Assembly (NCBI GenBank): GCA_963741035.1
Contig: CAVUGX010000043.1
Location: forward strand, 25,899 to 89,898
From: an uncultured delta proteobacterium
GTDB lineage: Bacteria; Desulfobacterota; Syntrophobacteria; Syntrophobacterales; Syntrophobacteraceae
Direction of reading: 5' to 3'
DNA: 64,000 nt
Made by a program: the position numbers and the translations under genes. Shown here piece by piece: positions 4,291-54,485 of this stretch (position 1 is the first letter of the stretch; each line of letters begins with the position of its first letter). Under the pieces are notes generated by a model, which made no database searches, was not told the origin of the DNA, and saw only the letters and a list, made by a program, of their open reading frames with translations.

Positions 4291-4330
4291 CCGCTTTGTC
4301 CCTGCTTTTTCTATTCACTATTCACTATTC
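4291..4330. repeat. Heptamer array (ccgctttgtccctgctttttc TATTCAC TATTCAC TATTC)
   Basis: This is a tandem 7-nt period. It contains the pilT-like stop codon (protein ends ...YQNSE). It is a direct repeat of 3773-3840, on the other side of the DUF4124 gene. Confidence 0.6.
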
Positions 4331-5586
4331 TGATAGATGCCGGATTTATTTATTTTGTTGACGACTTCTTCGAGACTTGTGGGTTCCTCGATTACATGTT
4401 CCTTTAATCGCCTTGAGGGTTCGCTGTCGAGGGTCTCGACGGCAATGCCGTCGATAGCTTCGTCCGCTTCCTGCAGCTCAGGAGGACATTGCTCAGGGAA
4501 ACCCCGCTGGGCGCCCGCGTCGACAAGGGGAGAATAATAAGGCGCCTCCCGGACCGATTCGGGTGTGGGCCGGAAAACATCCGCCGGGGAAGCAAAGGAG
4601 GTCAGCCTGTCGATATAATCTTTTACATATCCCTCCGTTGTAAACATCCCGTCGCTCCTCCCGGTCTGGATCGCGCTTTCGATCTGGGCGAGCTTGTTTT
4701 CACGGATCAAATTGCGAATGGCGGAAGTGCCCTTCATTATGGAGAGCAGCGGGACTCTGAAACCCGCCCTCTGATGGAATTCAAGCCGCTGGACCAAGAG
4801 CCAGGTCAAGGTCGAGGCAAGCTGAGTCCGGACTGCCTCCTGCGCTTCGGGCGGAAAGGAGTTGAAAATCCGGTAGAGGGCATCTTCCGAGTTGCTCGCG
4901 TGGAGTGAAGCTATGACGAGATGGCCCGATTCGGCGGCGTTCAGGGCAAGTCTCATTGTCTTGGTCTCCCGAAGCTCGCCGACAACTATGACATCGGGGT
5001 CTTCTCTCAATACGTCGATCAGCCCCTGTTCAAACGACGGCATATGCGTACCGAGTTCCCGCTGTTCTACAAAGGACATGGCCGAACTGAACCGGTACTC
5101 GATGGGGTCTTCCAGTGTTACTACATGTACCGTCTTCTCCCTGTTGATTTCATCTACTATGGCTGCAATCGTGGTCGTCTTTCCCGAGCCCGTGGCGCCG
5201 CAAACCAGCACTAACCCGGCGCGCACCCCGGCTATCTGCTGTATTGACGGGTGAAGATTGATGCCGGGAATACTGGGTATCGTGCCGGGCAAGATCCTGA
5301 CCGCGATGCTGAGTCCGCGGATAGTGTTGAAGACATTTATGCGGAGCCGTACGTGGCTGACCGACATGGCAAGATCGACCGACGACCGGCGCCTTAGTAT
5401 CTTCAACTGCCAGGGTGTCAGGAGGCCGCTCACCAGGCGGTCGACCTGCTCGTGCGACCACCTGATGCCTCTCTCAAAACTAACGAGTCCATGTTTTCGA
5501 AAAACAACGGGGTGGCCGCCGGTTATGTGCACGTCGGAGTATCCTTCGCCAACGGCGGTGAGCATCAGGTTGTCAAATCGTTCCAT
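4318..5586 (-). CDS. pilT: Type IV pilus retraction ATPase, PilT/PilU family, with a ~70 aa C-terminal extension
   Basis: Walker A is GATGSGKTTT, Walker B is DVIVVGELR, and the His box is AESGHLVIASLHA. Confidence 0.85.
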   Translation of the reverse strand: MERFDNLMLTAVGEGYSDVHITGGHPVVFRKHGLVSFERGIRWSHEQVDRLVSGLLTPWQLKILRRRSSVDLAMSVSHVRLRINVFNTIRGLSIAVRILPGTIPSIPGINLHPSIQQIAGVRAGLVLVCGATGSGKTTTIAAIVDEINREKTVHVVTLEDPIEYRFSSAMSFVEQRELGTHMPSFEQGLIDVLREDPDVIVVGELRETKTMRLALNAAESGHLVIASLHASNSEDALYRIFNSFPPEAQEAVRTQLASTLTWLLVQRLEFHQRAGFRVPLLSIMKGTSAIRNLIRENKLAQIESAIQTGRSDGMFTTEGYVKDYIDRLTSFASPADVFRPTPESVREAPYYSPLVDAGAQRGFPEQCPPELQEADEAIDGIAVETLDSEPSRRLKEHVIEEPTSLEEVVNKINKSGIYQNSE

Positions 5587-5615
5587 TTAGATTGTTCCAG
5601 TCTGCGGGTTTGATT

Positions 5616-5646
5616 CAGTGAGCAGTGGAAATTTTACTGCTCACTG
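5616..5646. repeat. Perfect 10-bp inverted repeat hairpin built from the CTCACTG heptamer (cagtgagcag-N11-ctgctcactg)
   Basis: Read directly from the sequence, 30 nt upstream of the pilT-like start codon. Confidence 0.6.
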
Positions 5647-5710
5647 CCCTGATACCGTCCAGGTTACCATCATAGCGTGTCACAAAGTACGGGTGTGAAA
5701 TAATCGGCGC

Positions 5711-5795
5711 TTCATGCGTGATTGCCGGCGGAACGTTTGTGTCAAATTGTTATTGCCACTGTTACCCGTTGCATCAAAATTCAATACGGAGTCAC
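5711..5795. repeat. Copy A of an ~85 nt direct repeat
   Basis: The sequence ttcatgcgtgattgccggcggaacgtttgtgtcaaattgttattgccactgttaccc... aligns by hand at roughly 75 percent with 6211-6295. Confidence 0.5.
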
Positions 5796-6210
5796 TATTT
5801 AACTTCGGAATTTTTCAATAATAAATTAAATATTAGTCATTAGCCGGTGAAAACCATCTTCCAAGAATCAGAGAAGCCGAGCCCGGCCGCGATGAGCGTG
5901 CCTTCCATTTTAAACTCTGCCCCCTGTGCCGGTAGCTTGCCGGAGAATCAGCATCAGTGTCCAGTTTATGCTGATGTACGCCTCGCAACAAGTTGAGATC
6001 AAGACCGGGTATAAACCCAGCCCCCACAGCATTGTCGCGCTGCTACATTCGCAGGGGAGGGCTGACATCCCGGAGCACCATACTTGCGCGCAACGTGGGT
6101 GCGCGACAGGGAAACAGCCGAGGCCTCGCTGCTTCAGATGACGTTCGTGAAGTTCGGGCAAATGTCTTGTCGGACCGCTTGAGTCATAGCAATCCTTGCA
6201 GGTTTGGTGT

Positions 6211-6295
6211 TTCATGAGCGATCGCCAGCGGAACGCCTCGCGTCAAATTATTATTACCATATTACCTATCGTGTCAAACTTCGATACAGTTCATG
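6211..6295. repeat. Copy B of an ~85 nt direct repeat
   Basis: The sequence is ttcatgagcgatcgccagcggaacgcctcgcgtcaaattattattaccatattacc... On the minus strand it carries TTGACA-N16/17-AATAAT, a promoter-like pattern. Confidence 0.5.
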
Positions 6296-6394
6296 TGCGT
6301 CAAGGACACCCTGTAACCATGAAAAGACCCGTAAAACCTGTAGGGTAAGCGGGAGCGCAGCCCGCCAAAACTTTTCGGAAAAGAATTAACAACA

Positions 6395-6500
6395 CGCTTT
6401 GTTCCTGCTTTTTCTGCTCACTGTTCCTCGCGAAGCGATAGAACCAAAAGGAATTATTTTCTTTTGCTTTTTCTATTCACTATTCACTGCTCACTATTGA
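6395..6500 (+). repeat. Composite repeat holding two heptamer-family units and an ~85 nt element shared with 18745-18832
   Basis: The segment 6414-6500 reads ctgctcactgttcctcgcgaagcgatagaaccaaaaggaattattttcttttgctttttctattcactattcac. It matches the reverse complement of 18745-18832 at roughly 88 percent by hand alignment. Confidence 0.7.
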
Positions 6501-6729
6501 CTATTTAAATGGTAAAGAGTCAGTTCCATTTTTCCGATTAAATACTCAAAGTTGGTAGCCGGCATGGTGCTGTTTTTCGTCGAGCTTCTTTGAAACCAAC
6601 GCCGGGATTGATAAGAGGTTTAGTGGAAAGGACAGGAGTTGCTCACCCCCCTGGAAACCGGCGCTGGTCGAGAATAAGGATGTTATTTTTGAACTGCCGG
6701 TATTGGGCGTTGAGGCAAAGGTATAGGGC

Positions 6730-7212
6730 ATGAAATTATCGAAGAAAGATTCGCCTGGTTTTACCATGATCGAAGTCATAGCGGTGCTCGTGATCCTGGG
6801 CATAATTTCCGCCGTTGTGATAGCCAAAGTATCCTCCGTCATCGCCCAATACAACCTGGATTCCGAGGCGGACGTCATAAAGGGACATCTTCGTTACGCC
6901 CAGGCGCTATCCATGAATAGTACCGTGAATTGGGGGATAACCTTTTCGAGTGGAAGTTACACCATTTTCACCAATCCAAGCTCTACCGTAGCGCTGCCTG
7001 GAACAAGTAATACCGCCGCCCTCGCCACTGCGAACTTACCATCAGGGATGACAATCTCAACCGGAACGGTTTCCTTTGACTCCTGGGGGACGCCTTATAC
7101 GGACATTCACGCTACCAGTTTGCAAACGGGTGGACCGCAATCCTACACTTTATCCCTGGGGAACAATTCGGTGGCCATTCTAATCTGGGACGACACCGGG
7201 CTTATTCCATGA
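6730..7212 (+). CDS. Prepilin-type N-terminal cleavage/methylation domain protein (minor pilin, GspH/FimT-like)
   Basis: The class III signal is KKDSPGFTMIEVIAVLVILGIISAVV. It is the first gene of a four-gene pseudopilin operon. Confidence 0.8.
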   Translation: MKLSKKDSPGFTMIEVIAVLVILGIISAVVIAKVSSVIAQYNLDSEADVIKGHLRYAQALSMNSTVNWGITFSSGSYTIFTNPSSTVALPGTSNTAALATANLPSGMTISTGTVSFDSWGTPYTDIHATSLQTGGPQSYTLSLGNNSVAILIWDDTGLIP

Positions 7213-7664
7213 AGACACCATACCCATCGAAATGCAGATCACTCGGTTTTACTCTTATAGAGGTGATAGTAACGATTGTAATTGCCGCTGTCATGGCGCA
7301 TATGCTCTTCACATTGTCTTTTACATTTCTTAAGATGAGCGCTAATCAGGTTAGCGCTATCCAAAACAATATGGCCTTTTTTCAGGTAATGGAAAATATG
7401 GTTGCAGATTATAAAGCTAAAATGTCTTCCACTACCGATACCAGTCCATTATCAACTTTTAGTACAAGTGTTACGGCTAATGCTACAACAACATATTATG
7501 GACAAACCTACACTCTTGTCAATAACACTCCGTGTTATGCTACATACAATGGAAGTGGGGCTGAAACATCGTGCGTAAGTTCTCCTGTTCCTGCACCTCC
7601 GAGCACACTCAAGATCCAGATTTCAAATGGGACTATGACTCTGACATCACTTTTCACGCAATGA
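7209..7664 (+). CDS. Prepilin-type minor pilin (PilV/MshO-like)
   Basis: It carries GFTLIEVIVTIVIAAVM. An ATGA start/stop overlap with the upstream gene indicates translational coupling. Confidence 0.75.
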   Translation: MKTPYPSKCRSLGFTLIEVIVTIVIAAVMAHMLFTLSFTFLKMSANQVSAIQNNMAFFQVMENMVADYKAKMSSTTDTSPLSTFSTSVTANATTTYYGQTYTLVNNTPCYATYNGSGAETSCVSSPVPAPPSTLKIQISNGTMTLTSLFTQ

Positions 7665-7670
7665 TTTTAC

Positions 7671-8603
7671 GTGAAAGGAAAGAATAAAGTGAAAAACAAA
7701 GCCGGTTTTACTCTTATCGAACTTATTGTTACATTGGTTATTATTGGTATCGTAGCTGCCATTGCCGGCCTTGGGGTCCCGATGTATGCCCGAAGTTATC
7801 TGTTTGTGCGGAATAACTCGGCTATAAGCCAGAAAGCCCAAATAGCCCTGGTAAGGATAGGGCGGGAGCTTGTCGATTTGCAGTCCATTACCTCAACCAG
7901 TTCATCCCCTACGAGTATTACGTACACCAGGCTGTCCACCAGCCAGGCTATAATGACCCAGACTCTCGCGTATAATTCAACGAACAAAACGATCACGCTG
8001 CTCAGCACGGGCGGACCGTTTTCCGAATCTGCCAATACTTTGCTCGATAATGTGACTGCTTTTACGTTGTCTTATTATGCGGGGAGTTCGGCGTGGGTTA
8101 GCGGGACCAGCAGCCTCAACCTGCTCTCCACTATTGCGATAAGTATCACGGAGACGGGCACCGGCGTGTATGGCAGTAGCTCTACGACAACTTTTACGAC
8201 TACCGTCAGTCCGCGTAATAATGGGAACACAGGCGGCGTAGCTCCGCCTACTCCCTCGACCCAACCGGCTTTCACCAAGAATTGCTTCGTCGCAACCGCC
8301 GCTTACGGGCAGGTGGACCATCCCACGGTCGTGCTGCTGAGGGAATTCAGGGACCGGTTTCTTCAGAAGTGCTATTTGGGCAGGTGTTTCATCGATGCGT
8401 ACTATAAAGTCGGACCGTCTTTGGCGGACGTGATCCGAAATCGTCCATGGGCCTGTTTTGCAACACGTGTGTTGCTGTCGCCCGTTGCGGGAATGGTTCT
8501 TTTGATGATGTACTTTCCGGCATCGATTCCGGTGATTTTCATCATTTCCTGGGGCAGCTTTTATTTCATGCGTCGTAAATGTTTAAGACTCAAGGATCGA
8601 TAG
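7671..8603 (+). CDS. Prepilin-type minor pilin fused to a C-terminal CFIATAAYG-type (CFI-box-like) membrane-anchored domain
   Basis: The start is GTG, and an alternative GTG at 7689 would give MKNKAGFTLIE. The N-terminus has AGFTLIELIVTLVIIGIVAAIAG. From 8283 the sequence is CFVATAAYGQVDHPTVVLLREFRDRFL...YYKVGPSLA, followed by hydrophobic segments. Confidence 0.75.
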   Translation: MKGKNKVKNKAGFTLIELIVTLVIIGIVAAIAGLGVPMYARSYLFVRNNSAISQKAQIALVRIGRELVDLQSITSTSSSPTSITYTRLSTSQAIMTQTLAYNSTNKTITLLSTGGPFSESANTLLDNVTAFTLSYYAGSSAWVSGTSSLNLLSTIAISITETGTGVYGSSSTTTFTTTVSPRNNGNTGGVAPPTPSTQPAFTKNCFVATAAYGQVDHPTVVLLREFRDRFLQKCYLGRCFIDAYYKVGPSLADVIRNRPWACFATRVLLSPVAGMVLLMMYFPASIPVIFIISWGSFYFMRRKCLRLKDR

Positions 8604-8605
8604 GC

Positions 8606-10684
8606 ATGCTGAAGGATCAAAAAGGGTCGGTACTCATCGCAGCTATCGTGACCATAGCCGTCATGGGAATCCTGATGGCCGCCATGACTGCATTTCTACC
8701 GACGTCCAGTTGGGGTCCGTCAAATAGTTATGCTTCCAAAAAGGCTTATTATATGGCCGAATCAGGCTATAGATACGCATCCTCTCAGTTTATCCATGCG
8801 AGCACTGGAACCAGCGCGGCAGCACAAGCCGCTAAGTTTGCGGAACTTAATACGCTTAATGGTTTACAGGGTGCATCAGCGGTGAACGTTAAAGCCGGGA
8901 GCGGATCGGCCGGCAAATTCGCGCTGACCGTCACACCTTATTTCTTGACCTTCAGTAACGGCTACTCTTCCACGAGCAGTTCTTTGTCGGTGGCGCTGCA
9001 ATATCCAGGTACGGCGCCTGCCACAGCCTACCAGCTACCCGCCGCCTCCGGTGCATTGGACGTTAGCACTACTACTATACCATCGGTAGTAACCTACACC
9101 AACTGCTCATCGACTAAAATCGGCTTTTCATTGACGATATCAAGCCTTCCCAATTCGGTTTTGGCTTATAACAGCGTCCGATATGCAACACAACCAACGA
9201 GCGCAGCTACGGTTCAGAAGGGCGGCAATCTTACTTTGACTAATGCAGGGCCATTTCCATCAACAAATGGAACTTTTAGAACAAAGACCGGCGTTGTATA
9301 TGCCTACCAATCTAAATCAGGAAATACTCTCCAGAATATAACTTTTAGCGACAGCAGTAATCCGGGTACTAATATGCCACTGACGGTTGCTGCGACCGAT
9401 TATATAGTATCCAACGAATATGTTCAGATAGCTTCTACCGGAACGGTATCCTCAGGAAGCGCCACATTATCGGATACGGTAAATTATTATGTACCCCTTG
9501 GATTTGTCCAGACCCCGAGCACTGGTTCTTCCTCTCCCTCGCCGCCAACATTGACAGGCAGTCCTGATACAATGAACTCTGCCACCGACCCCGGTTTTGC
9601 CGGCGTGGTTTCGGGAGCAGCTGCGTTTAATGTTAGCGATCCTAATAATTCCGGTAATAAATATTTGCAGATGACTTCAGTAAGTGGAGATACTGCGTAT
9701 GAGAATGATATCGGACTCGGCAGCAATAGTGGATCTCTGGCACTGTTGCCTCTAAACAGTTCACTTTTAAATAGCCTCAGTTCTGCATGGAACAATGGGA
9801 ATCATTATTATGAGGCACAGGTAAAGGTTAGCACTTATCAAACTAACTATAATAACCTGCCTAATTACCTGGCTGGAATTAATTTTGGGTTGAAACAATC
9901 CGGAAGCTCATATTATGGTTATGGAATTTCATTTGCTTACTTTCCATCTGGTGCTACTACTAGTAAGAGTAATATGGATGGTATACCCGCTGGACTGTTG
10001 CCCAATAATAACTTAACAGGCCAACAAATGATTTTGTTATGGGAAAACACGCAGAATAACGGGTTCCAGTGGATCGCCTACCAGACGCTGCCATCCCCCA
10101 TTTCTAACGGCAGCACTAACCCGGGTATCGAGAATTGGACCACTCTGTTGGTAAGTATTAACGAGATAGATACGGGAAGCGGATCACCATACAATTTGAT
10201 CAGGGCCTACTACGGAACTGTCACGAACCAGGGGACTGGTCAAAATACTATCCCGACCGACAATAACAGCGGTTCAGATCCACTATGGGGTGCCACCCCA
10301 AGTCCCAACTGGGTGCCTCTCGATGCAACGGCAACGCACTGGACAACCGGCTGTAACGGTGGAAGCTGCGATAATTACACGCTTGTAAACTGGACCGCTG
10401 TCAATTCCAGTTCAACCGCCAATCTCGCCCCGTCCTCCGTCTTACCAAGCGGAGACAGTGCGGAGACAGGCTGCGTTATTCAGGACTCCACATTTACAAC
10501 GGGAGCTTCCGGCTCCCTTACCAGCCCGGTGATCGCTTTGCACGTGGCAGGGAGCTACGGTTGCAGCGGTATTATTATCTTTGGCTCTTGTAATAGTATC
10601 AATATCGGTTTTGATGATTTTGCTATTGGAGCACTGGGTGGAAATAATTATACAATAGGTTTTACATCACCGATTGAGCAATGA
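8606..10684 (+). CDS. Large Ser/Thr/Asn-rich pilus-associated protein with a PilX_N-like hydrophobic N-terminus (candidate tip adhesin, MshQ/PilY1 analogue)
   Basis: The start was moved to the ATG at 8606, directly after the upstream stop. The N-terminus is KGSVLIAAIVTIAVMGILMAAM, with no G-F cleavage site. The rest is 692 aa of low-complexity extracellular-type composition. It is the last gene of the pseudopilin operon. Confidence 0.6.
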   Translation: MLKDQKGSVLIAAIVTIAVMGILMAAMTAFLPTSSWGPSNSYASKKAYYMAESGYRYASSQFIHASTGTSAAAQAAKFAELNTLNGLQGASAVNVKAGSGSAGKFALTVTPYFLTFSNGYSSTSSSLSVALQYPGTAPATAYQLPAASGALDVSTTTIPSVVTYTNCSSTKIGFSLTISSLPNSVLAYNSVRYATQPTSAATVQKGGNLTLTNAGPFPSTNGTFRTKTGVVYAYQSKSGNTLQNITFSDSSNPGTNMPLTVAATDYIVSNEYVQIASTGTVSSGSATLSDTVNYYVPLGFVQTPSTGSSSPSPPTLTGSPDTMNSATDPGFAGVVSGAAAFNVSDPNNSGNKYLQMTSVSGDTAYENDIGLGSNSGSLALLPLNSSLLNSLSSAWNNGNHYYEAQVKVSTYQTNYNNLPNYLAGINFGLKQSGSSYYGYGISFAYFPSGATTSKSNMDGIPAGLLPNNNLTGQQMILLWENTQNNGFQWIAYQTLPSPISNGSTNPGIENWTTLLVSINEIDTGSGSPYNLIRAYYGTVTNQGTGQNTIPTDNNSGSDPLWGATPSPNWVPLDATATHWTTGCNGGSCDNYTLVNWTAVNSSSTANLAPSSVLPSGDSAETGCVIQDSTFTTGASGSLTSPVIALHVAGSYGCSGIIIFGSCNSINIGFDDFAIGALGGNNYTIGFTSPIEQ

Positions 10685-11022: not shown

Positions 11023-12606
11023 CTAATTTGGTTTCACATGTTCATCCGTGGCGGATTGTTCCTGCCCCGTGAGGCGCCTGCCGCTCCAGACCGTCGGCGT
11101 TACCTCGTGCCATTCGAGGCCTTCGATTTTAGGCTGTTCGCGGCGGACGAGGACCATCCTGTCCTTTTGAGTCATTTTTCCCACCCACGGGGTATAACTC
11201 TCGGGTTTTCCATTGGTGAGCTGGATATGACGGTATATTTTCAGGTCGTCATCGGGCATCCATATAGGCTCGAATCCAAGAACGTATTTCCATTCACTGT
11301 GCGGGTTGTTGTAAAATATATTGTAGAAAGCATCCATACTATCGTTGTAGAGTATCCCTCCCGGTTCCGGGAGCCATTCTCTTTGCTCTGTGTCGGACAT
11401 GTTCGGCCATGGGACTCCGGTCATGGCGGTCCAACGGCTGCCGCGGTCGTTGCTCAGCCCCAGAAAAAGCGAAAGGCAGACCGCAACTACCACCACCAGC
11501 CTGCGGGGGTCGAACTCCCCTATGTGTCTTTCCATTACCCCTTCAATTTCCGCTGCTGTCCAAAAAGCAACTGCGGGCCAACCCCAGTCACTCCAGAACC
11601 GCACGGCGACAAAACCCAATACCCAGCACAAAACGCCAAGGATGAATACGGGATTGTCCACGCAGTCATTGTTCCATTGCCCGCGCGCGGTTCTCCATAG
11701 CAACATGGCCGCAACCACTGCGACTGCAAATGGAGCGCCGTCAAAGGGTTGAAACTCGGACACGAGCTGTCTTTGGAAATCGATATGTCCCATCGCCTGC
11801 AATGCGTGGTAGATCATCTGGTGCAGGAAAGTCAGGGGGCTGCCGGTAAAAGTCGCCCCCAGTAGTATGCCCGCCACCACGGCCGCAGCCATGAGGGCCG
11901 AGACCCTCCACTGCCTGGCCAGGCCAAGCGCGCATATAGGCAGGACAAGCAAGTACCATGTGCCGTGGATCCATGTGCTCAAGGCGGATACGACCGCAAA
12001 AACAGCCAATTCGGCAATGGGTGCTTTCTTGTCCCGGATCTTTGTCCATAAAAAACAGAACACCACGACCAGAAACATGCTGAAGATAAAGGGCCTTCCA
12101 AATAAAAGGCGACTCACCGTCCCAAGGGAAAATACCGAAAATATCAGCAGCGATAAAATCCAGGCCTCGGGACGTTTGAACAAAAAGACCGGGGGGACCA
12201 CAAAAAGGAGAAACAAAAACAGGACGGAAAAATTGAGCAGCAGCGTGGAATCGGGCCGCGTTAGCCTGGAGACCTGTTTTAGAATTAAGTGCCACCCTGG
12301 ATGACTGTCCATGGTGATCTCTTCGCGCACAACCAGGATGTCCTGCCATTCTTTGCCGGAAATCACCTTGGCGACGTGCCTCAGGGCATCGTCAACGGGT
12401 GAGAACCCGTGACCCAAAATCTGCAGGCAAGTTAAGAGGAGTGCGGCAAGGCAAATGAGGAGAACGGCCGACCTGAGGACTTTTTCAAGGGCTTTAAGAC
12501 TGACATCATTTATGGGCGCCGATATTGAAAGCTGTGCGCCGCTTATGGGCGAAATACTCAGATTTCTGACTCTTGATCGGACTCCGTGAGACGGATAATC
12601 ATTCAA
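11023..12606 (-). CDS. Polytopic integral membrane protein with a C-terminal soluble domain, encoded directly downstream of pilA (possible GT-C-like pilin-modifying enzyme)
   Basis: By eye there are about 11-13 hydrophobic segments. A VDDALRH motif sits in the first extracytoplasmic loop. The ~130 aa C-terminal domain is hydrophilic and Trp/Tyr-rich. No family could be assigned from the sequence alone. Confidence 0.5.
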   Translation of the reverse strand: MNDYPSHGVRSRVRNLSISPISGAQLSISAPINDVSLKALEKVLRSAVLLICLAALLLTCLQILGHGFSPVDDALRHVAKVISGKEWQDILVVREEITMDSHPGWHLILKQVSRLTRPDSTLLLNFSVLFLFLLFVVPPVFLFKRPEAWILSLLIFSVFSLGTVSRLLFGRPFIFSMFLVVVFCFLWTKIRDKKAPIAELAVFAVVSALSTWIHGTWYLLVLPICALGLARQWRVSALMAAAVVAGILLGATFTGSPLTFLHQMIYHALQAMGHIDFQRQLVSEFQPFDGAPFAVAVVAAMLLWRTARGQWNNDCVDNPVFILGVLCWVLGFVAVRFWSDWGWPAVAFWTAAEIEGVMERHIGEFDPRRLVVVVAVCLSLFLGLSNDRGSRWTAMTGVPWPNMSDTEQREWLPEPGGILYNDSMDAFYNIFYNNPHSEWKYVLGFEPIWMPDDDLKIYRHIQLTNGKPESYTPWVGKMTQKDRMVLVRREQPKIEGLEWHEVTPTVWSGRRLTGQEQSATDEHVKPN

Positions 12607-12849: not shown

Positions 12850-13260
12850 CTATGGGACCAGGACCACCGACTTTGTGTTACCGGAAGTGGGCATCGTCGC
12901 ACCGGGGGTAGTGGGTACAACAGAAATGTTGATAGCAACATTGCCCGTGCCCGCCGTATAAGTGGCGTTGTAATCTCCAAGATTCGTATAATTAGTACCA
13001 GTGGTGAGTGCAGTCACCAAGGCGGCTGAAGTGGTGATGGCTGTCCCCCCGTTGATCAACGAATTTGCATACACCATGGCGACATTGGAAGCCGCTGCGG
13101 CCGCTGCACCCTGAGCAGCCGTGGAGGCTGCCGATGCCTGCATGCTCATGTATTTGGGAATGGCCACTGCGGCCAAAATACCCAAAATCACCAACACGGC
13201 GATGATTTCGATCAACGTAAAACCTTTTTGATTCCTCAATACACTCTTCCTCTTTTTCAT
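12850..13260 (-). CDS. pilA: Type IVa major pilin
   Basis: The leader is MKKRKSVLRNQKG followed by FTLIEIIAVLVILGILAAVAIPKY. The protein is short at 136 aa with an Ala/Thr-rich C-terminal region. A sigma54-type promoter lies upstream. Confidence 0.9.
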   Translation of the reverse strand: MKKRKSVLRNQKGFTLIEIIAVLVILGILAAVAIPKYMSMQASAASTAAQGAAAAAASNVAMVYANSLINGGTAITTSAALVTALTTGTNYTNLGDYNATYTAGTGNVAINISVVPTTPGATMPTSGNTKSVVLVP

Positions 13261-13391: not shown

Positions 13392-14618
13392 TCACTTGTT
13401 TACCAACTTCATCAAGTCCCACATGGGGAGGAAAATTGCAAAAGCAAAGAAACCGACGACACCTGCAAGACCAACGATCAGAACCGGCCCGATCGCCTCG
13501 GAGAGCCTTTTTACGGAGTAGGCGACCTCATCGTCGTAGTGTGCCGAGATTTCCCGGAGCATTCCGTCCAGGTTGCCGGACTCCTCCCCTATGGCGACCA
13601 TGTTTATCACCATCGGGGTGAAATACTTGGAGGAACTCAGTGGGCCGGCTATTCCCCGGCCTTCTTCGACACGCCCGCGGATGCGGTCGAACTGCCGGCC
13701 GATTGCAGTATTGCCGATTGTTCCGGAAAGGATATTCAATGAGTCGAGCACGGGAACACCGCTCGATTGGAGTATTGCGAAGATGCTGGAAAAGCGGGAC
13801 ATCGCGGTCTTGACAAAAAGCGGCCCCAAAATGGGTATTTTCAGGACCATGGAATCCTTGAGGAACCTTCCCCGCTCGGTTTTTTTGACGCAGTAAACCA
13901 GCCCAATCACAAGGCCCGCTATCCCCGCGACCAGCAAATACCAGTAAGCGGTGATTAAATGGTTGAGCAGCATGCAGACCAGGGTCGGCCAGGGCAGTTC
14001 GAGATTTGCGCTCTGAAAAACCGTGGCGAACTTGGGGACAACAAAGGTGAGGAGGAAAAAGAAAGCGCCGACAAGGGCTATGACAACGGTCGCGGGATAT
14101 TGCAGGGCCGACTTTATGTCGGACTTCACCCGGTTCTCGTGTTCGATAATATAGGTCAGCCGGGTGAGCACCTCCGGCAGCGCGCCGCTGGACTCGCCGG
14201 CGCGGACCATGCTGCAGTAGAGGTTGGAAAATGTCTTATGTTTTCGGAACGCGTCGTAAAGTGTGGCGCCTTCCTTGATGTCGGCAGACATTGTTGCAGT
14301 GATCTTCTTAAGCTTTTTGTTCGGACTCTGGTTTTCAAGCACCTGCAGGAGCTGCAGGATGGGCACCCCGGCCTGGAGAAGGGTTCGAAACTGTTTCGTG
14401 AAGAGGATAAGCTCCGGTGGACGGACGACGCTCAGTTTTTCGTCAATCGAGGAAAGGGCAGTGCCCTGTGATTGTGATGCCTTTGCTTCGGTCACGCCGG
14501 CGGGGATAAGCCCCCGGTCCGCCAGGATGTTCTGCGCCATTTCGGCCGAATCGGCTTCGATAGTGCCCGACAGGGTCTTGCCGGATTCGTTGATGGCCTG
14601 GTACGCAAACTTTTGCAC
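13392..14618 (-). CDS. pilC: Type IV pilus platform protein PilC / MshG (GspF family)
   Basis: The protein has 408 aa with the duplicated T2SS-F domain architecture and 3 TM segments. The start is GTG. It sits beside pilB and pilA. Confidence 0.9.
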   Translation of the reverse strand: MQKFAYQAINESGKTLSGTIEADSAEMAQNILADRGLIPAGVTEAKASQSQGTALSSIDEKLSVVRPPELILFTKQFRTLLQAGVPILQLLQVLENQSPNKKLKKITATMSADIKEGATLYDAFRKHKTFSNLYCSMVRAGESSGALPEVLTRLTYIIEHENRVKSDIKSALQYPATVVIALVGAFFFLLTFVVPKFATVFQSANLELPWPTLVCMLLNHLITAYWYLLVAGIAGLVIGLVYCVKKTERGRFLKDSMVLKIPILGPLFVKTAMSRFSSIFAILQSSGVPVLDSLNILSGTIGNTAIGRQFDRIRGRVEEGRGIAGPLSSSKYFTPMVINMVAIGEESGNLDGMLREISAHYDDEVAYSVKRLSEAIGPVLIVGLAGVVGFFAFAIFLPMWDLMKLVNK

Positions 14619-14647: not shown

Positions 14648-14674
14648 TCTCACCGCAGAGGCGCAGAGAAAAAC
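14648..14674. repeat. Collapsed solo arm of the GxxExxY cassette repeat (ctcaccgcagag|gcgcagagaaaaac)
   Basis: It equals the first 12 nt and last 14 nt of the 14760-14848 arm joined at the internal GCAGAG direct repeat. Confidence 0.5.
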
Positions 14675-14894: not shown

Positions 14895-15251
14895 TTAATT
14901 CCATCCTTGAGCAGCGGTACATCTCGCGAAGCGTCGAGACTTCTCATTTGATCCGCCAACCTTGAGATATGTAAGAAGCTGCGCTTCGTGAATCGGCAGG
15001 AGCACCTCGACTGCCTTGATCTCTACGACAACAGAGTTCGACACGAGTAAATCGAGGCGATAACCGCAATCGAGTCTGGCTTCTTTAAAAACAACCGGCA
15101 ATGGTTTCTGTCGTTCAAAGCAAACCGCACGCAGCCCCAATTCATGGCAGAGACATTCCTCATACGCGGACTCCAAAAGACCGGCTCCCAAAGCTCGGTG
15201 CACCTCGACAGCCGCCCCAATGATCTCTTTTGTCAGTTCATTGAATGGCAT
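14895..15251 (-). CDS. GxxExxY protein (PD-(D/E)XK nuclease superfamily), probable frameshift near the C-terminus
   Basis: The sequence is MPFNELTKEIIGAAVEVHRALGAGLLESAYEECL...HEAQLLTYLK. The family-typical tail PLLKDGIKRVVLGLKE is encoded in the +1 frame and ends at 14868, so the gene is either a pseudogene or there is a sequence error. Confidence 0.75.
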   Translation of the reverse strand: MPFNELTKEIIGAAVEVHRALGAGLLESAYEECLCHELGLRAVCFERQKPLPVVFKEARLDCGYRLDLLVSNSVVVEIKAVEVLLPIHEAQLLTYLKVGGSNEKSRRFARCTAAQGWN

Positions 15252-15338
15252 TTTTTCTCTGTGCTCTCTAAAGATAGACCGTAGCCCCTCGTAGTAGGCC
15301 ACCGGATTTTTGGAATTGTCGAACGGCTCTGCGGTGAA
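15251..15338. repeat. Right inverted-repeat arm (~88 nt) of the GxxExxY cassette
   Basis: It is the reverse complement of 14760-14848, and it begins at the predicted start codon of the GxxExxY ORF. Confidence 0.8.
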
Positions 15339-15359: not shown

Positions 15360-17072
15360 TCAGACCATAACAGCCGATGCGGCCTCCTCGAGAGTGGTTA
15401 TGCCACGAAGGACCTTGTTCGCGGCATCAGCTTTCAGGGTCTGGAGCTTTCCCGCTTCCTGGGCGGCCCGGGCGATCTCCTGCGCCGGCTTTCTGCGCAG
15501 GATCATGTCCTGCACCATCTCGTCATTCACTAGAATTTCGAAAATGCCCGTCCTGCCCTTATGCCCGGTATTGTTGCAGTTGAAACAGCCCCTGCCCCGC
15601 ATGAAGTTTGCCTCCTTCCAATCATAGATCCCAAAGTGCTCGAGGGCTTTTTCCGGCGGCGTGTAGGGCTCCTTGCAAAATGGGCAGACGGTGCGCACCA
15701 GGCGCTGCGCAAAGGAGACGAGGAGCACCGAGGAGACGAGGAAAGGCTCGATTCCCATGTCAATGAGGCGGGTTATGGCGCCGGCGGCATCGTTTGTATG
15801 AATGGTGCTAAGGAGCCTGTGACCGGTGAGAGCCGCTTGAACTGCGATCGCCGCCGTCTCGCGGTCCCGGATTTCTCCGACCATGATAACGTCCGGGTCC
15901 TGGCGAAGGACCGAGCGGAGCCCGCTGGCGAAAGTCATGCCGGCCTTGGTGTTGAGCTGAACCTGTCTGATCCTTTCGACCCGGTATTCGACGGGGTCTT
16001 CAAGAGTTATGATATTGGTGTCGGGCTGGTTCACTTCCCGCAAAATAGCGTACAGGCTGGTGCTCTTGCCGCTCCCGGTCGGTCCGGTGCTAAGGATCAT
16101 GCCGTAGGGCTTGCGGATCGCGCCGTGGATCTTTTCCCTGTCGGGTTCCGACATGCCGAGTTTGTCGAGTGTGTAGTGCCGGGCGTTCATATCGAGCAGG
16201 CGGAGCACCATGTTTTCACCGTGAATAGTCGGGAGGGTGGATGCCCGGATGTTGATTTCGCGGTTGTCCATCCTGACTGTAAAACGCCCGTCCTGCGGGA
16301 CCCTTAGCACGGCAATGTCCATGCCGGCAAGGATTTTGGCCCTTGATATGATCGGGAGCAGCATGGACTTGGGGGGAGCGGGCGCGTCGTGGAGCTTTCC
16401 GTCTATTCGGAACCGCACCGAAGCGCTGTCCTTTTCGGGACTCAAGTGAATGTCGCTCGCCCCGTCCCTGACGGCCTGGGCTATTACGGAGTTAACCAGG
16501 CTCACGACCGGGGCCTGCTGTATCATGTCCATCAGGGACCCGACCTGGATTTCCTCGGCAGCCACCGCAGCAGTGGCGGATTCGGGTTCGGACCTGACCT
16601 GCATCTCCTCCAGGCTGCCCATGACCTCACCGAGGCTGCTGTGCATTCCGTAGATGGTGTTGCGAAGCTGGTTCAACATGCGTTCGGAACAGATAACCGG
16701 TTCGATCTCCCGGCCCGTAAGGGTCTCGATCATATCCAGGGTCTCGATGTTGGTTGGATCTGTCATGGCGATGGTAAGGACCCGACCGCTCCTCTTTAGA
16801 GGCACGCAGTTAAACTTGAGCGACATGTCGGACGAGAGAACGCCGGCAATCTGCATATCTATGGGATATTGCGCGGGGGTATATTCTTTCAGATTCAACT
16901 GGCGGCACAGCAGGTCTATGATGTTCGGCTCATCCACGAGCCCTTGCCGGGTCAGGTATTGTCCCAGCATGAGGCCGGTTTTTTTACTTGCGGCCAGGGC
17001 CTCCTGAAGCTGCTCTTCGGTAAGCAGCCCGGCCTTCACGATCATTTCCCCGAGTCTTTCCCTTTTCTTCAC
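15360..17072 (-). CDS. pilB: Type IV pilus assembly ATPase PilB/MshE (GspE family) with an N-terminal MshEN-type domain
   Basis: Walker A is GPTGSGKST. The tetracysteine motif is CPFC...CFNC. The N-terminal RLGEMIVKAGLLTEEQLQEALAAS and MLGQYLTRQGLVDEPNIIDLLCRQ match the tandem 24-residue MshEN pattern. The start is GTG. Confidence 0.9.
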   Translation of the reverse strand: MKKRERLGEMIVKAGLLTEEQLQEALAASKKTGLMLGQYLTRQGLVDEPNIIDLLCRQLNLKEYTPAQYPIDMQIAGVLSSDMSLKFNCVPLKRSGRVLTIAMTDPTNIETLDMIETLTGREIEPVICSERMLNQLRNTIYGMHSSLGEVMGSLEEMQVRSEPESATAAVAAEEIQVGSLMDMIQQAPVVSLVNSVIAQAVRDGASDIHLSPEKDSASVRFRIDGKLHDAPAPPKSMLLPIISRAKILAGMDIAVLRVPQDGRFTVRMDNREINIRASTLPTIHGENMVLRLLDMNARHYTLDKLGMSEPDREKIHGAIRKPYGMILSTGPTGSGKSTSLYAILREVNQPDTNIITLEDPVEYRVERIRQVQLNTKAGMTFASGLRSVLRQDPDVIMVGEIRDRETAAIAVQAALTGHRLLSTIHTNDAAGAITRLIDMGIEPFLVSSVLLVSFAQRLVRTVCPFCKEPYTPPEKALEHFGIYDWKEANFMRGRGCFNCNNTGHKGRTGIFEILVNDEMVQDMILRRKPAQEIARAAQEAGKLQTLKADAANKVLRGITTLEEAASAVMV

Positions 17073-18920: not shown

Positions 18921-18960
18921 TTCACTATTCACCATTCACTATTCACTATTCACTATTCAG
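18921..18960. repeat. Heptamer array (TTCACTA x5-6) containing the pilQ stop codon
   Basis: The sequence is ttcactattcaccattcactattcactattcactattcag. Positions 18921-18938 form a perfect 18-bp inverted repeat with 18751-18768. Confidence 0.75.
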
Positions 18961-20553
18961 CTCCGGAAGGAGGTGGGGCGTTATAAAAATGAGCGTGTCC
19001 TCCAGGTCCTCCGTGTGTCCGTCCGATCTGAAAAGCGCGCCCAGAATAGGCAGATCCTTGAGTCCAGGCATGCCCACATTCGATTTGGTCGTCGTATTCT
19101 GAGTAAGACCGGCGATCACGATCGTCTCGCCATTTCTGCAGATAAGGGTCGTCCGGGTCTGTTTTTTGTCGATGACCGGATTGCCGGAAACCTCGTGCGT
19201 GAAGTCCACCTCGTCGTTTGTTACGAGTATCTGGAGTTTGAGATAGTCGTCGGAGATGACATGCGGTGTTATCTCGAGTCTCAAGACGGCATCTACGAAC
19301 TGGACCTCCGTGCCTCCCAGGGAGGTGGTCGAAACATAGGGGACCTTTTGGCCGTTCTCGGTATATGCCATTTGGTTGTCGAGCGTCGATACCGACGGGG
19401 TGGAGAGGATTTTCAGCAAGCTTTTCGACTGAAGGGCCGTGAGCTGCATATCCAATATATTCCCCGCGATTTTCCCGTACAATAGACCGAGACTGCCGCT
19501 TCCCGCCGCCAGCTGGGTCGCGGTGATGTTGGCGGGAAAATTCATTCCAAACCCTTGGCCGCTGATGCCCGTTACGCCTGTCTGGGGATTATAAGTATCC
19601 GTGGTGACGCCTGTGGTCGCATTAGTTGTCACCGTGCCGTTTGTACCTCCCGGTGTCACGCCGATATTTCCGGGTTTATAGAACCCGCCCCATTGAATGC
19701 CGAGCTCCAAGGCGGTTTGTTTTGAGGTCTGCACAATTATCGATTCTATATTGATCTGCCGGCCCGGCGTGTCCACTTGCCTGACAATTTCGGTTATTTT
19801 CTTCAGGTCGTCGCTGATCGCGTTGACAAGAAGAGCATTCGTGTGCTCGTGAACTGTAATCGACCCTCTCGCCTGGCCCTTATCATCCTTTGTAAGGTAA
19901 TCTTTGAGCTTCTCCTGGAGCTTCACGGGGTCGGCGTACCGCAACGGCAGGATCTTGAGCACCAGTGGCTCGTAGGCGATCCGGTTCAAGTCCTGGCTCC
20001 TCAGCTTCTCGATCTGCGTCCCGAGCCTGACTTCGTTTTCCTTGTCTGCGACCGACATGACGCGAATGAGGTCCCCTTCCCATGCCCAGGTGAGGGAATT
20101 GACCCTTAATACCCCAAGAAAAGCCTCGTCCCATGGGATGTTCTCGATATCGACGCTGATGTTTCCCTTGACGCTGTCGTTCATGATTATATTCTGGTTT
20201 ACGGACCTGGCCAGGGCACGCAGGACCACGACCAGATCGGCATTGTGCATTCGAACGTACACCTTCTGCTTTGACAGTTGCCTTTCCGGCGTTTGAGCCT
20301 TCGCATGCTCCGGAACGGCTCGTTTGACACTTTCGGGGAGTTCGATCTCCTGCTTCTCGGCGGTAGGCGAATGTCCTTTTGATTCCTCAGCCATCGCCTT
20401 CCAATCCCTGGGCGGCACTTCCGGCTTGACCTGCTTGGGTGCGGGAGGTTGGGCGCAGGAAATCATGGAAAACATCAGCAGTGCCCCAAAAATGGCGGCC
20501 CATGCCATCCGCTTACTCCTCCTCATAGGGAAAGCCGTGAGAGCCCCTCGCAT
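18946..20553 (-). CDS. pilQ: Type IV pilus secretin PilQ/MshL
   Basis: The lipoprotein-like signal is LLMFSMISC. Secretin N-domains are present. The C-terminal secretin motif is GMPGLKDLPILGALFRS...LIFITPHLL. The protein ends ...ELNSE inside a heptamer array. Confidence 0.9.
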   Translation of the reverse strand: MRGALTAFPMRRSKRMAWAAIFGALLMFSMISCAQPPAPKQVKPEVPPRDWKAMAEESKGHSPTAEKQEIELPESVKRAVPEHAKAQTPERQLSKQKVYVRMHNADLVVVLRALARSVNQNIIMNDSVKGNISVDIENIPWDEAFLGVLRVNSLTWAWEGDLIRVMSVADKENEVRLGTQIEKLRSQDLNRIAYEPLVLKILPLRYADPVKLQEKLKDYLTKDDKGQARGSITVHEHTNALLVNAISDDLKKITEIVRQVDTPGRQINIESIIVQTSKQTALELGIQWGGFYKPGNIGVTPGGTNGTVTTNATTGVTTDTYNPQTGVTGISGQGFGMNFPANITATQLAAGSGSLGLLYGKIAGNILDMQLTALQSKSLLKILSTPSVSTLDNQMAYTENGQKVPYVSTTSLGGTEVQFVDAVLRLEITPHVISDDYLKLQILVTNDEVDFTHEVSGNPVIDKKQTRTTLICRNGETIVIAGLTQNTTTKSNVGMPGLKDLPILGALFRSDGHTEDLEDTLIFITPHLLPELNSE

Positions 20554-51869: not shown

Positions 51870-51907
51870 ATAAATCCATTTGGACTTATATGACCTATTA
51901 TAGTGTT

Positions 51908-53008
51908 CTAAAACTTGAACTGAGTGGTCGTTCTCCAGGTCGTCATGGCAAGACGGTAATCGTCAATGTGCTCATGGCTGAACTCAAGACCTGTCCGTGC
52001 AAAGAAACGCTCCCAGCCGATCCGTTTGATCCATTCGCCAATCCGCTCGTAACGACGCCCGCCCGCGGCGTAAGCCTCGACGATCGTCTTGACCGTCTGA
52101 ACCGTGGTGGGCCATCTGGGCGGTTCGTTGGGAATGAAGGGCACAGCCAGCTTGGAGAACATCGGGGGCGATTTCACGTTGGAGACCTTGCCGCCCACCC
52201 AAATAGCGATCCCGTCGCCCTCGCCGTCTGCCAGGGGCAGAGCAGGACACATGGTGTAGCAGTTACCGCAGAACATGCACCGGTTGTTGTTGATTTCGAC
52301 GCTCTTCATTTCGCCGACCTTTTTAGGCTTGATTGCAGCCGTAGGGCATGCGGCAACTACCAGTGGAATTTCGCACACGTTCTGGACGCGTTCATTCTCG
52401 ACGAAGGGCGGCTTCCTGTGAACGCCCAGAATTGCGATATCCGAGCAGTGAACGGCGCCGCACATGTTGAGGCAGCACGCCAGGGCGATGCGAATCTGCG
52501 CGGGCAGCTTGTGGCTGCCGAAATACTCGAACAGCTCGTCCATAACGGCCTTAACGACACCGGAGGCATCGATGGCGGGGGTATGGCAGTGTGCCCAACC
52601 CTGTGTGTGGACGATATTGGTGATGCTGCTTCCGGTCCCGCCAACGGGGAACCAGTTGCCTCGGGCGCGCAGTGCGGCCAGGAGCGGCTGGAGCTTTGTT
52701 TTGTCGCTCACCAGGAACTCGACGTTGTTTCTGGTAGTCCAGCGCAGGTATCCGCCGCAGAACTTATCGGCCAGATCGCACAACTCAAGGATATATTCGG
52801 TGCTGACAAGACGCGCCGACCCAATGCGAACCGAGTAGACTTCGGCGCCGGATTCAGCCACGTGCACCAGGACGCCCGGCTCAAGAATTTCGTGGTATTT
52901 CCATTTACCGAAATTCTCTTTGATAACGGGCGGGAAGAACTTGTCATATCTTGGGGGACCAATGTCGGTAATACGGTCTTTCATGAGATTGTTCGGATCA
53001 AAAGCCAT
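51908..53008 (-). CDS. dsrB: Dissimilatory sulfite reductase beta subunit
   Basis: The protein begins [27 protein letters not shown]. The ATG follows AGGAGG, 12 nt after the dsrA stop. Siroheme/Fe-S Cys clusters and a ferredoxin insert are present. Confidence 0.92.
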
Positions 53009-53020
53009 CTTTTGCACCTC

Positions 53021-54292: not shown

Positions 54293-54485
54293 TCGTTTAC
54301 CTCCGTTAGTGTGTCTCTTCATCTGTCACTTGTACACATTTTGACACGGAATTCGATCCGTTAGCTTCTTCTCACCTCCCTTTCAAAGAACATATTCATA
54401 CTTATTAAAAAGAATGCCTCAAGTTTCGGTCTTCATTCAAATTCGCGACTGGAAGACTCATCGGCGGGTCGGGGAAGGCAGGGTC

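Follow-up and report, generated by a model that had tools for sequence, protein, structure and literature searches.

A minor pilin with a CFI-box tail and predicted membrane anchor as the split form of a tandem minor-pilin family

The window analysed here, a stretch of 64,000 nucleotides of contig CAVUGX010000043.1 from an uncultured delta proteobacterium of the Syntrophobacteraceae, contains four co-directional prepilin genes in the order H-I-J-K (beginning at positions 6730, 7209, 7671 and 8606). The third gene (7671-8603, forward strand) encodes a minor pilin at the J position that carries a C-terminal domain known as the CFI box. Comparison with its relatives indicates that this tail is the remnant of a joint that elsewhere connects J to the large pilin K. 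The longest open reading frame (ORF) of the J gene comprises 310 amino acids from the first GTG. The true start is probably GTG 7689, giving a protein of 304 amino acids, because an AAGGA motif is present at 7675-7679, 9 nucleotides upstream, and all homologues begin with MKNKAG/FTLIE (the slash marks the predicted cleavage site). The 304-residue product is identical to the database protein P0001, which is present on five contigs.

The J protein starts with a six-residue class III leader, MKNKAG (7689-7706, forward strand), delimited from the sequence and from the starts of the homologues, and continues as MKNKAG/FTLIELIV, with a short basic leader, Gly at position -1, Phe at +1, Glu at +5 and a hydrophobic helix of about 20 residues. 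Prepilin peptidase is predicted to cut after the Gly of the leader (codon 7704-7706). The class III signal pointed out in a preliminary description of this DNA is confirmed by the Pfam model N_methyl (PF07963; 36.4 bits for a cutoff of 21.2, amino acids 8-32) and by TIGR02532 (33 bits, cutoff 16.3). At the other end of the protein, the NCBIfam model NF041770 (CFI_box_CTERM) matches amino acids 205-272 with 80.5 bits (cutoff 40, E-value 5.8e-23), covering 68 of its 69 positions, and reaches 83.1 bits on the isolated C-terminal 106 amino acids. The hidden Markov model (HMM) search suggested in the preliminary description thus supports the identity that it had given to this region; in Pfam, no model matches the CFI region. 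The match ends 38 residues ahead of the stop codon, so that the domain is C-terminal in this protein, and no other CFI box is present in the 64-kb window. Neither of the GspJ sequence models TIGR01711 and PRK08808 is found among the matches of J at E ≤ 1, and we assign the protein to the GspJ/PilW/MshO-like J subunits by predicted fold and gene order only.

An AlphaFold2 (AF2) model of J, built from an alignment of 59 sequences, has a mean predicted local distance difference test score (pLDDT) of 89 and a predicted TM-score (pTM) of 0.60. The mature pilin domain (7707-8225, forward strand, as are all segments of J), delimited by AF2, Foldseek and an invariant PRN motif, is predicted to consist of a long alpha1 helix (residues 15-68) and a beta-sheet (strands within residues 70-179), and ends with the motif SPRNNGNTGG. 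Foldseek matches to the PDB are confined to this domain and correspond to EpsJ (2ret, 3cfi) and XcpW (5bw0), with E-values from 2e-4 to 1e-3, a probability of 1.0 and, for the predicted structure, target-normalised TM-scores of 0.50-0.63. It is followed by a Pro-rich linker (8226-8282), recognised from the distribution of linker lengths in the family and from low pLDDT values (58-72); the low-confidence part of the model covers residues 181-206. The CFI box itself (8283-8513), delimited by NF041770, AF2 and conservation, opens with Cys205 and Phe206, both invariant across the 59 relatives, and continues with four predicted helices (207-212, 218-231, 235-255 and 259-281), a fifth helix (285-309) being located after the box. 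The LRxFRD and YY..GP motifs of the CFI box are also present in J, and helix 4 harbours the conserved residues R266, L269, P271 and G274. No protein in the PDB proved to be related to the CFI box, either by fold or by sequence and profile comparison. Besides the N-terminal pilin helix, the hydropathy profile displays two C-terminal hydrophobic stretches, at about amino acids 260-283 and 285-301. The second one, preceded by the conserved Pro283, is the predicted single membrane-spanning helix (8523-8573), as suggested by hydropathy, by the 59 relatives and by the 'mini' relatives described below. The protein ends with a basic, presumably cytoplasmic tail, RRKCLRLKDR, and the stop codon (8574-8603). 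This tail would be the remnant of a cytoplasmic loop between J and K, and close relatives do not share its sequence beyond RRK.

The next gene (8606-10684, forward strand) encodes the K-position protein, a large minor pilin or adhesin of about 700 amino acids with its own ATG, a leader MLKDQKG and an AAGGA motif at 8592-8596. The longest ORF begins at 8579, and ATG 8606 is conserved in two related loci (L085 and L086). The protein starts with MLKDQKG/SVLIAAIV...AYYMAESG, in which Gly-1 is kept and Glu5 is absent, and is predicted to be cut after the Gly of the leader (codon 8624-8626). Its extreme C-terminus, ...FDDFA...GFTSPIEQ, is conserved (FDDFAIGALGGNNYTIGFTSPIEQ), and alignments of the family reveal that K relatives share the end YFDDFAxQ........GFLxPIQQ. 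In other systems, assembly of the tip complex is licensed by a C-terminal beta-strand, and this conserved end is a candidate for such a strand.

Searching a profile of the fused J-K family against 1.84 billion cluster representatives yielded 186 matches at E ≤ 1e-30. What had first appeared as a one-off fusion between a pilin and a membrane domain is instead the conserved junction of a protein family. Most of the top matches are about 900-1,380 amino acids long, and their first 300 residues or so correspond to the whole pilin, CFI-box and transmembrane unit. At E ≤ 1e-10 the same search gave 13,472 representatives, which are apparently mostly CFI-box matches. The search for further prepilin and CFI-box fusions that the preliminary description called for was therefore productive: J is fused on to K in a single protein in 80 of the 156 relatives examined. 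Similarly, at least 12 of the 15 pilin and CFI-box loci examined in reference genomes (L005-L019, from Syntrophales, Syntrophaceae, Smithella, Desulfobacterales and other 'Deltaproteobacteria' metagenome-assembled genomes (MAGs)) consist of a single fused ORF. A word-indexed search retrieved full-length relatives of J itself at 89, 88, 75 and about 40% identity (down to about 39%) from independent assemblies, including one Syntrophales MAG, together with shorter relatives of 186-207 amino acids that end just past the pilin SPRNN motif.

The junction has the same layout throughout the fused proteins. The pilin domain ends with PRN(N/T)xNxGG, in which PRN is invariant, and gives way to a Pro-rich linker; the motif CF(I/V) is located 21-28 residues past PRN (mostly 22-28) in every fused protein examined. 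It is followed either by a full CFI box or, in the 'mini' forms, which are common, by the first seven or so residues of the box only (CF(I/V)xTAA), and the spacing from PRN is the same in both cases. Then come one transmembrane helix and a loop with a median length of 19 amino acids, a median of 5 Lys and Arg residues and 0 Asp and Glu residues. The Gly of a second signal is found exactly 40 residues before AYYLAESG in 71 of the 80 fused proteins, and the corresponding helix, of about 20 residues and a mean hydropathy of 2.4, leads into a large domain. Glu5 is present in 76 of 78 N-terminal signals and in none of the 80 second signals. In most members of the family the CFI box is hence internal, for instance at residues 196-263 of the 1000-residue protein P0027. 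On the evidence of these alignments, the tail of J is a conserved joint between J and the large K protein, the two usually forming one polyprotein of about 900-1,380 amino acids with an internal class III signal of the K type. More distant operons (e.g. L004) encode a plain J and a separate K with neither CFI nor transmembrane element; the junction is not universal and corresponds to a lineage-specific elaboration.

The window carries a split derivative of such a polyprotein, in which J ends with the anchor and K is a separate gene with a seven-residue leader. Read in the frame of K, the sequence leading up to ATG 8606 (..GSIGMLKDQKG) shows homology with the uninterrupted loop of P0027 (RRKSPIGIASDQKG), and the J tails past RRK vary among relatives that are 75-89% identical (CLRLKDR, FS, FSKVFTTEAG...). 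K directly follows J in four lineages; J and K overlap by 4 nucleotides in three split lineages other than that of the window (L001, L087 and L088), and a palindrome-flanked insert of about 100-240 bp separates them in L085 and L086. Fused and split forms are interspersed in a neighbour-joining tree of the region comprising J and the CFI box, which implies that fission occurred repeatedly, always in the sequence corresponding to the cytoplasmic loop. The ratio of nonsynonymous to synonymous substitution rates (dN/dS) in the split clade that includes the window is 0.18-0.23 for the CFI box, compared with 0.29-0.35 for the pilin domain; the module has therefore been maintained by purifying selection after fission.

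The insert in the two related loci resembles a miniature inverted-repeat transposable element (MITE). It has the inverted repeats CACCACAGAGGC ... GCCTCTGTGGTG, is located precisely between the stop codon of J and the start of K (L085:10890-11130 and L086:~5495-5590) and is absent at window positions 8603-8606. One near-copy of its 12-mer is present at window positions 14651-14662, which is not above chance.

We also considered a programmed -1 frameshift between J and K and rejected it: the sequence CGT AAA TGT contains no slippery heptamer, the relatives contain inserts of 100-240 bp, and K has its own AAGGA and ATG. An artefact, in which a sequencing or assembly frameshift would have linked the pilin gene with that of some unrelated small membrane protein, or would have split J and K erroneously, is suggested by the position of the two genes in different frames, 2 nucleotides apart, such that a change of one nucleotide would fuse them as in most relatives. 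We nevertheless regard it as extremely improbable and reject it, as the identical J protein is present on five contigs, a split, with different tails, is likewise found in the relatives at 88, 89 and 75% identity (two of them with the 100-240-bp insert), K has a conserved ATG with AAGGA at the right spacing, the 4-nucleotide J/K overlap occurs in three more lineages, and the pilin-CFI junction is conserved in more than 100 sequences. The preliminary description had itself raised a frameshift between two genes, which is contradicted by the same architecture in the independently assembled relatives at 89, 88, 75 and about 40% identity.

In the topology that we propose, the N-terminus of J would be cytoplasmic and the N-terminal half of alpha1 (alpha1N) would cross the membrane; the pilin domain, the linker and the CFI box would be periplasmic, and a single transmembrane helix would lead to the cytoplasmic tail. 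In the 'mini' forms, the periplasmic CF motif and the basic loop are connected by exactly one transmembrane helix, so that an odd number of spans is expected in the full forms. On a simple insertion-energy scale applied to the 59 sequences, the median is 0.9 kcal/mol for the second hydrophobic helix and 1.9 kcal/mol for the first one, and values below zero are reached by 17 of 59 and 3 of 59 sequences, respectively. The first helix is part of the CFI model and is amphipathic in CFI proteins that have no transmembrane helix. Mini-form parity, the insertion energies and the positive-inside rule thus designate the second stretch as the better candidate, and it is likely that only one of the two spans the membrane. 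Both hydrophobic stretches of the preliminary description are therefore present, although by mini-form parity only one of them probably crosses the bilayer; its proposal that J is anchored in the inner membrane at both ends agrees with our prediction.

The operon begins with an H-position, GspH-like minor pilin gene (6730-7212, forward strand; N_methyl 28.5 bits; TIGR01708 gspH, E-value 1.6e-9, below cutoff; Pfam GspH, E-value 0.0023). It is followed by a weakly GspI/PilV-like minor pilin gene (7209-7664, forward strand; N_methyl 29 bits; gspI, E-value 0.012; PilV, E-value 0.016), which was assigned to the I position because of its place in the operon. A PilT-like ATPase gene, divergent from the operon (4318-5586, reverse strand; T2SSE 133 bits), has counterparts at 8 of 21 J-K loci. 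Further genes of the filament locus are located on the reverse strand and encode a candidate major pilin of the same system (12850-13260; N_methyl 38 bits, GspG/PilA-type N-terminus), a platform protein of the GspF/PilC family (13392-14618; T2SSF 195.7 bits), an MshE-type assembly ATPase with an MshEN domain (15360-17072; T2SSE 432 bits, MshEN 58 bits) and a secretin (18946-20553; Secretin 146.5 bits, with Secretin_N and GspD N0 domains). An ExeA/MshM-like AAA protein and a PilM-like protein are also encoded at this locus. From this gene content, we identify the locus as an MSHA-like and type II secretion system (T2SS)-like type IV filament machine served by the H-I-J-K operon. The remaining genes of the window are housekeeping genes.

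Several other features of the window were noted. The 1.1 kb upstream of the operon (5587-6729) contain no convincing ORF and no Rfam match (a scan of the window gave zero matches), and short direct repeats are present around 6400-6510; at the equivalent place, 13-14 related loci encode an extracytoplasmic function (ECF) sigma factor and a protein of about 210 amino acids with three transmembrane helices and no Pfam match. A gene (11023-12606, reverse strand) that immediately follows the one for the candidate major pilin, and occupies an equivalent position in L085, encodes a 527-residue protein with about eight transmembrane helices and no match in Pfam, NCBIfam or the PDB, which could be a pilin-modifying enzyme. 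A gene of the PDDEXK_3 nuclease family (14895-15302, reverse strand) is inserted between the GspF and MshE genes, with the same layout in L085. Elsewhere, an ORF of 626 amino acids without Pfam match (51890-53770, forward strand) overlaps in antisense with a NIR_SIR-domain gene (53021-54322) and is probably spurious.

Outside pilins, the CFI box proved to be mainly bacterial among the matches, with representatives in Myxococcota, Paracoccus, Nitrospirota, Desulfobacterota and others and a single archaeal match, and not mainly a domain of archaeal surface proteins as stated in the preliminary description. It also occurs alone, behind cytoplasmic-type zinc ribbons and behind a lipoprotein-type signal, and is therefore more than a label for surface proteins; P0171, P0183, P0185, P0182, P0195, P0199 and P0227 either consist of a stand-alone CFI box or have, in addition, a zinc ribbon at the N-terminus or a lipoprotein-type signal. 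It thus seems that the domain is used on either side of the membrane. Internal CFI boxes are present in two large non-pilin proteins, P0167 (1661 amino acids, two copies) and P0136 (2009 amino acids). A profile of 29 CFI boxes returned short proteins only, so the range of N-terminal passengers observed here may not be representative. All-vs-all clustering of ORFs at 65 CFI-only loci revealed lineage-specific synteny in Polyangia only, where 15 loci (L029:6635-7798 and 14 others) contain a family of CFI-box proteins without transmembrane helix adjoined by a 387-residue signal-peptide protein, which looks like an outer-membrane barrel by eye, and by a GAF/GGDEF-like protein. These neighbours may be functional partners of the CFI protein or may only reflect orthologous synteny. 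In the literature searched, we found no paper on the CFI box or its motif, and no function or structure of it on record.

The window J resembles GspJ, EpsJ, XcpW, PilW and MshO in its class III signal (Gly-1, Phe+1, Glu+5), in its predicted alpha-beta fold and in its third place before a K lacking Glu5. Described J subunits end at the globular domain, whereas the window J adds 125 residues that comprise the linker, the CFI box, the transmembrane helix and the tail, and most of its relatives are, unlike described J subunits, covalently continuous with K. As a member of NF041770 it scores twice the curated cutoff, with 68 of 69 positions and the invariant Cys-Phe; it differs in that the domain is usually internal in this family, joining two pilin modules. 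The modular type IV pilins, such as PilB of S. sanguinis (PMC8179133), likewise combine a pilin module with an extra C-terminal module, but their modules are soluble domains that travel with the filament, whereas here the additional part is a predicted membrane anchor, usually followed by a second complete pilin. As in GspK and CpaL (PMC13533445), the K protein is large and has a conserved extreme C-terminus, as would be expected of a protein that brings its own assembly strand. In a census of archaeal type IV pili, C-terminal transmembrane helices were found only on S-layer-like proteins, not on pilins (PMC4858521). Public annotations of the proteins studied here read 'prepilin-type N-terminal cleavage/methylation domain-containing protein' or 'CFI-box-CTERM domain-containing protein'.

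The best explanation overall, to which we give a probability of about 0.6, is that the J tail is a J-K junction, split in the lineage of the window, by which J would be anchored and then released. In the polyprotein, the junction would return the chain from the periplasm to the cytoplasm, after which the second, K-type class III signal would insert with its N-terminus in and its C-terminus out and would be cut by prepilin peptidase. A stop-transfer element would be topologically required in the fused proteins because this second signal must insert correctly. We infer that the peptidase normally severs the loop at the internal site, since Gly-1 is conserved and fission of the loop has been tolerated repeatedly. 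Mature J would keep its second membrane anchor either way, and during formation of the tip complex this anchor would hold it in the inner membrane, next to K. For the tip complex to be pushed out of the membrane, J would first have to be freed by proteolysis at Cys-Phe-(Val/Ile) or immediately ahead of it. In characterised systems, the I-J-K complex has been described as the filament tip; it is built around a C-terminal strand provided by K or PilY1 and moves out of the membrane (PMC13533445; PMC7541494), and it is because of this behaviour that a release of J is proposed. Cleavage would take place near the invariant Cys: CF(I/V) is the best candidate site because it is, besides the transmembrane helix and the basic loop, the sole element that no member of the family has lost, and its distance from the pilin domain is nearly constant. 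An intramolecular disulfide involving Cys205 was rejected, as there is no conserved partner Cys and P0056 and P0069 contain no other Cys.

A known parallel is provided by the MYXO-CTERM sorting signals, which consist of an invariant Cys motif, a transmembrane helix and an Arg-rich tail and undergo a Cys-dependent cut by a CPBP intramembrane protease (PMC11980579; bioRxiv 10.1101/2023.06.07.544157). The 'mini' junctions have the same layout, with a periplasmic Cys motif, a transmembrane helix and a basic cytoplasmic cluster, and the distance from Cys to the transmembrane helix is 10-28 residues in these forms. In the window J, unlike in MYXO-CTERM proteins, the Cys is followed by a helical domain of some 75 residues before the transmembrane helix is reached, and no CPBP gene was found nearby. 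A more specific proposal, in which the tandem J-K polyprotein would be matured by two cuts, one by prepilin peptidase at the internal site on the cytoplasmic face and the other by a Cys-dependent sorting protease at the periplasmic CF(I/V), is possible but, in our opinion, rather doubtful.

A number of observations weigh against anchoring followed by release. All the processing steps are read from sequences. No CPBP, rhomboid or exosortase is encoded among the large ORFs of the window, where the multi-transmembrane ORFs of unknown family match none of them, and no A24 prepilin peptidase was detected among the large window ORFs either. The conserved neighbouring processing enzyme that the preliminary description suggested looking for was not found: neither a candidate protease nor a prepilin peptidase is recurrent near the 21 J-K loci or the 65 CFI-only loci, and clustering of the ORFs at the former yielded minor pilins, the ECF sigma factor, the protein of about 210 residues with three transmembrane helices, PilT and a GT2 glycosyltransferase. 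The 75 or so helical residues between Cys and transmembrane helix in the window J set it apart from known tripartite sorting signals; no sorting-signal model matches it, and the MYXO-CTERM model reaches only 16.3 bits on a 'mini' junction (cutoff 20), mainly on the transmembrane and basic part. The AF2 model contains two consecutive hydrophobic helices, which might form a hairpin. The internal K-type signal is missed by the N_methyl models, and the K assignment rests on gene position, with no Glu5 and weak matches to GspK and PilX_N: the window K scores 12.3 bits with the GspK model NF037980 (cutoff 130) and has a GspK N-terminal match with an E-value of 0.09, while PilX_N matches the K orthologue of L001 with an E-value of 4e-4 (20.7 bits, cutoff 25.5) and reaches E ≤ 0.01 in 1 of 41 members. 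Finally, stand-alone CFI-box proteins of 90-125 amino acids start with MSCFIATAAYG or MKCFIATAAYG and have no passenger, and other CFI boxes are located behind cytoplasmic-type zinc ribbons without signal peptide; the full box is therefore an autonomous module and not simply a cleavable tag read from one side of the membrane.

Two one-off neighbours were noted in connection with the invariant Cys, on which they could bear: a gene for a VKOR-thioredoxin fusion directly after K (L087:5710-6756) and a gene for a UbiA-family prenyltransferase flanking K (L001:13559-14446).

These observations give some room to other functions of the tail. J could be a permanent tether, never released and held by both ends in the inner membrane, where it would act as a primer, stopper or checkpoint gating filament extension. 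The absence of a processing enzyme near any locus examined is in line with such a role, as are the purifying selection on the CFI box in split forms and the occurrence of the box as an autonomous small membrane protein, which makes a stable end-product conceivable. The tightly kept linker length of 21-28 residues (mostly 22-28) would suit a spacer of defined reach; the linker and the CFI box together would reach about 8 nm, sufficient for a short stem only. The PilT-like ATPase and, in relatives, the ECF sigma factor that flank the operon suggest regulated dynamics. In characterised systems, however, the I-J-K complex leaves the membrane as the filament tip (PMC13533445; PMC7541494), and a tethered J would keep K, a presumed adhesin of 700-1,200 amino acids, at the inner membrane. 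Moreover, closely related operons use a plain J of 170-200 amino acids without anchor (L004), so that a stopper is not intrinsic to the system, and we consider a permanent tether unlikely. Both options of the preliminary description, removal of the C-terminal module and a tethered stopper, may nonetheless still apply.

The CFI box could otherwise be an autonomous membrane module that, for instance, oligomerises or docks to another component of the envelope via its lone Cys, and that clusters or positions J-K units where the filament is assembled. On extrusion of the tip, the C-terminal helix would leave the bilayer with alpha1 or would be cut without specificity. The stand-alone CFI proteins, the presence of the box behind both exported and cytoplasmic-type N-terminal regions and the confident four-helix unit of the AF2 model would all fit. 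An invariant Cys without conserved partner in cis points to an intermolecular bond or a modification site, and a VKOR-thioredoxin gene directly follows K at one locus, but this neighbour is not recurrent. The 'mini' forms argue against this interpretation: they have lost the four-helix unit, yet their CF(I/V)xTAA is still found at an unchanged distance from the pilin domain, so that within the pilins the motif and the transmembrane helix are essential and the folded domain is not. It would also be costly in energy to draw the tail, which has five or six positive charges, across the membrane. We thus hold a self-sufficient module of this kind to be improbable.

Minor pilins, class III signals and the CFI-box HMM were already known. 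In contrast, we found no description of the tandem arrangement of J and K, of the internal signal or of a J anchored at both ends: the literature searched mentions no pilin polyprotein and no internal prepilin site, in agreement with the statement of the preliminary description that the combination was new to it. The J-K family offers a first context for the CFI box, and the fissions of the loop represent a natural experiment that mimics the proposed cleavage. If the interpretation is correct, the production of two tip subunits as one polyprotein would constitute a new mode of tip-complex biogenesis, ensuring 1:1 stoichiometry and co-insertion, and the substrates of prepilin peptidase would extend to internal sites. 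Should maturation by two cuts also prove true, the CFI box would be a new Cys-type sorting or release signal, and the release of J would be a checkpoint that licenses filament extension.

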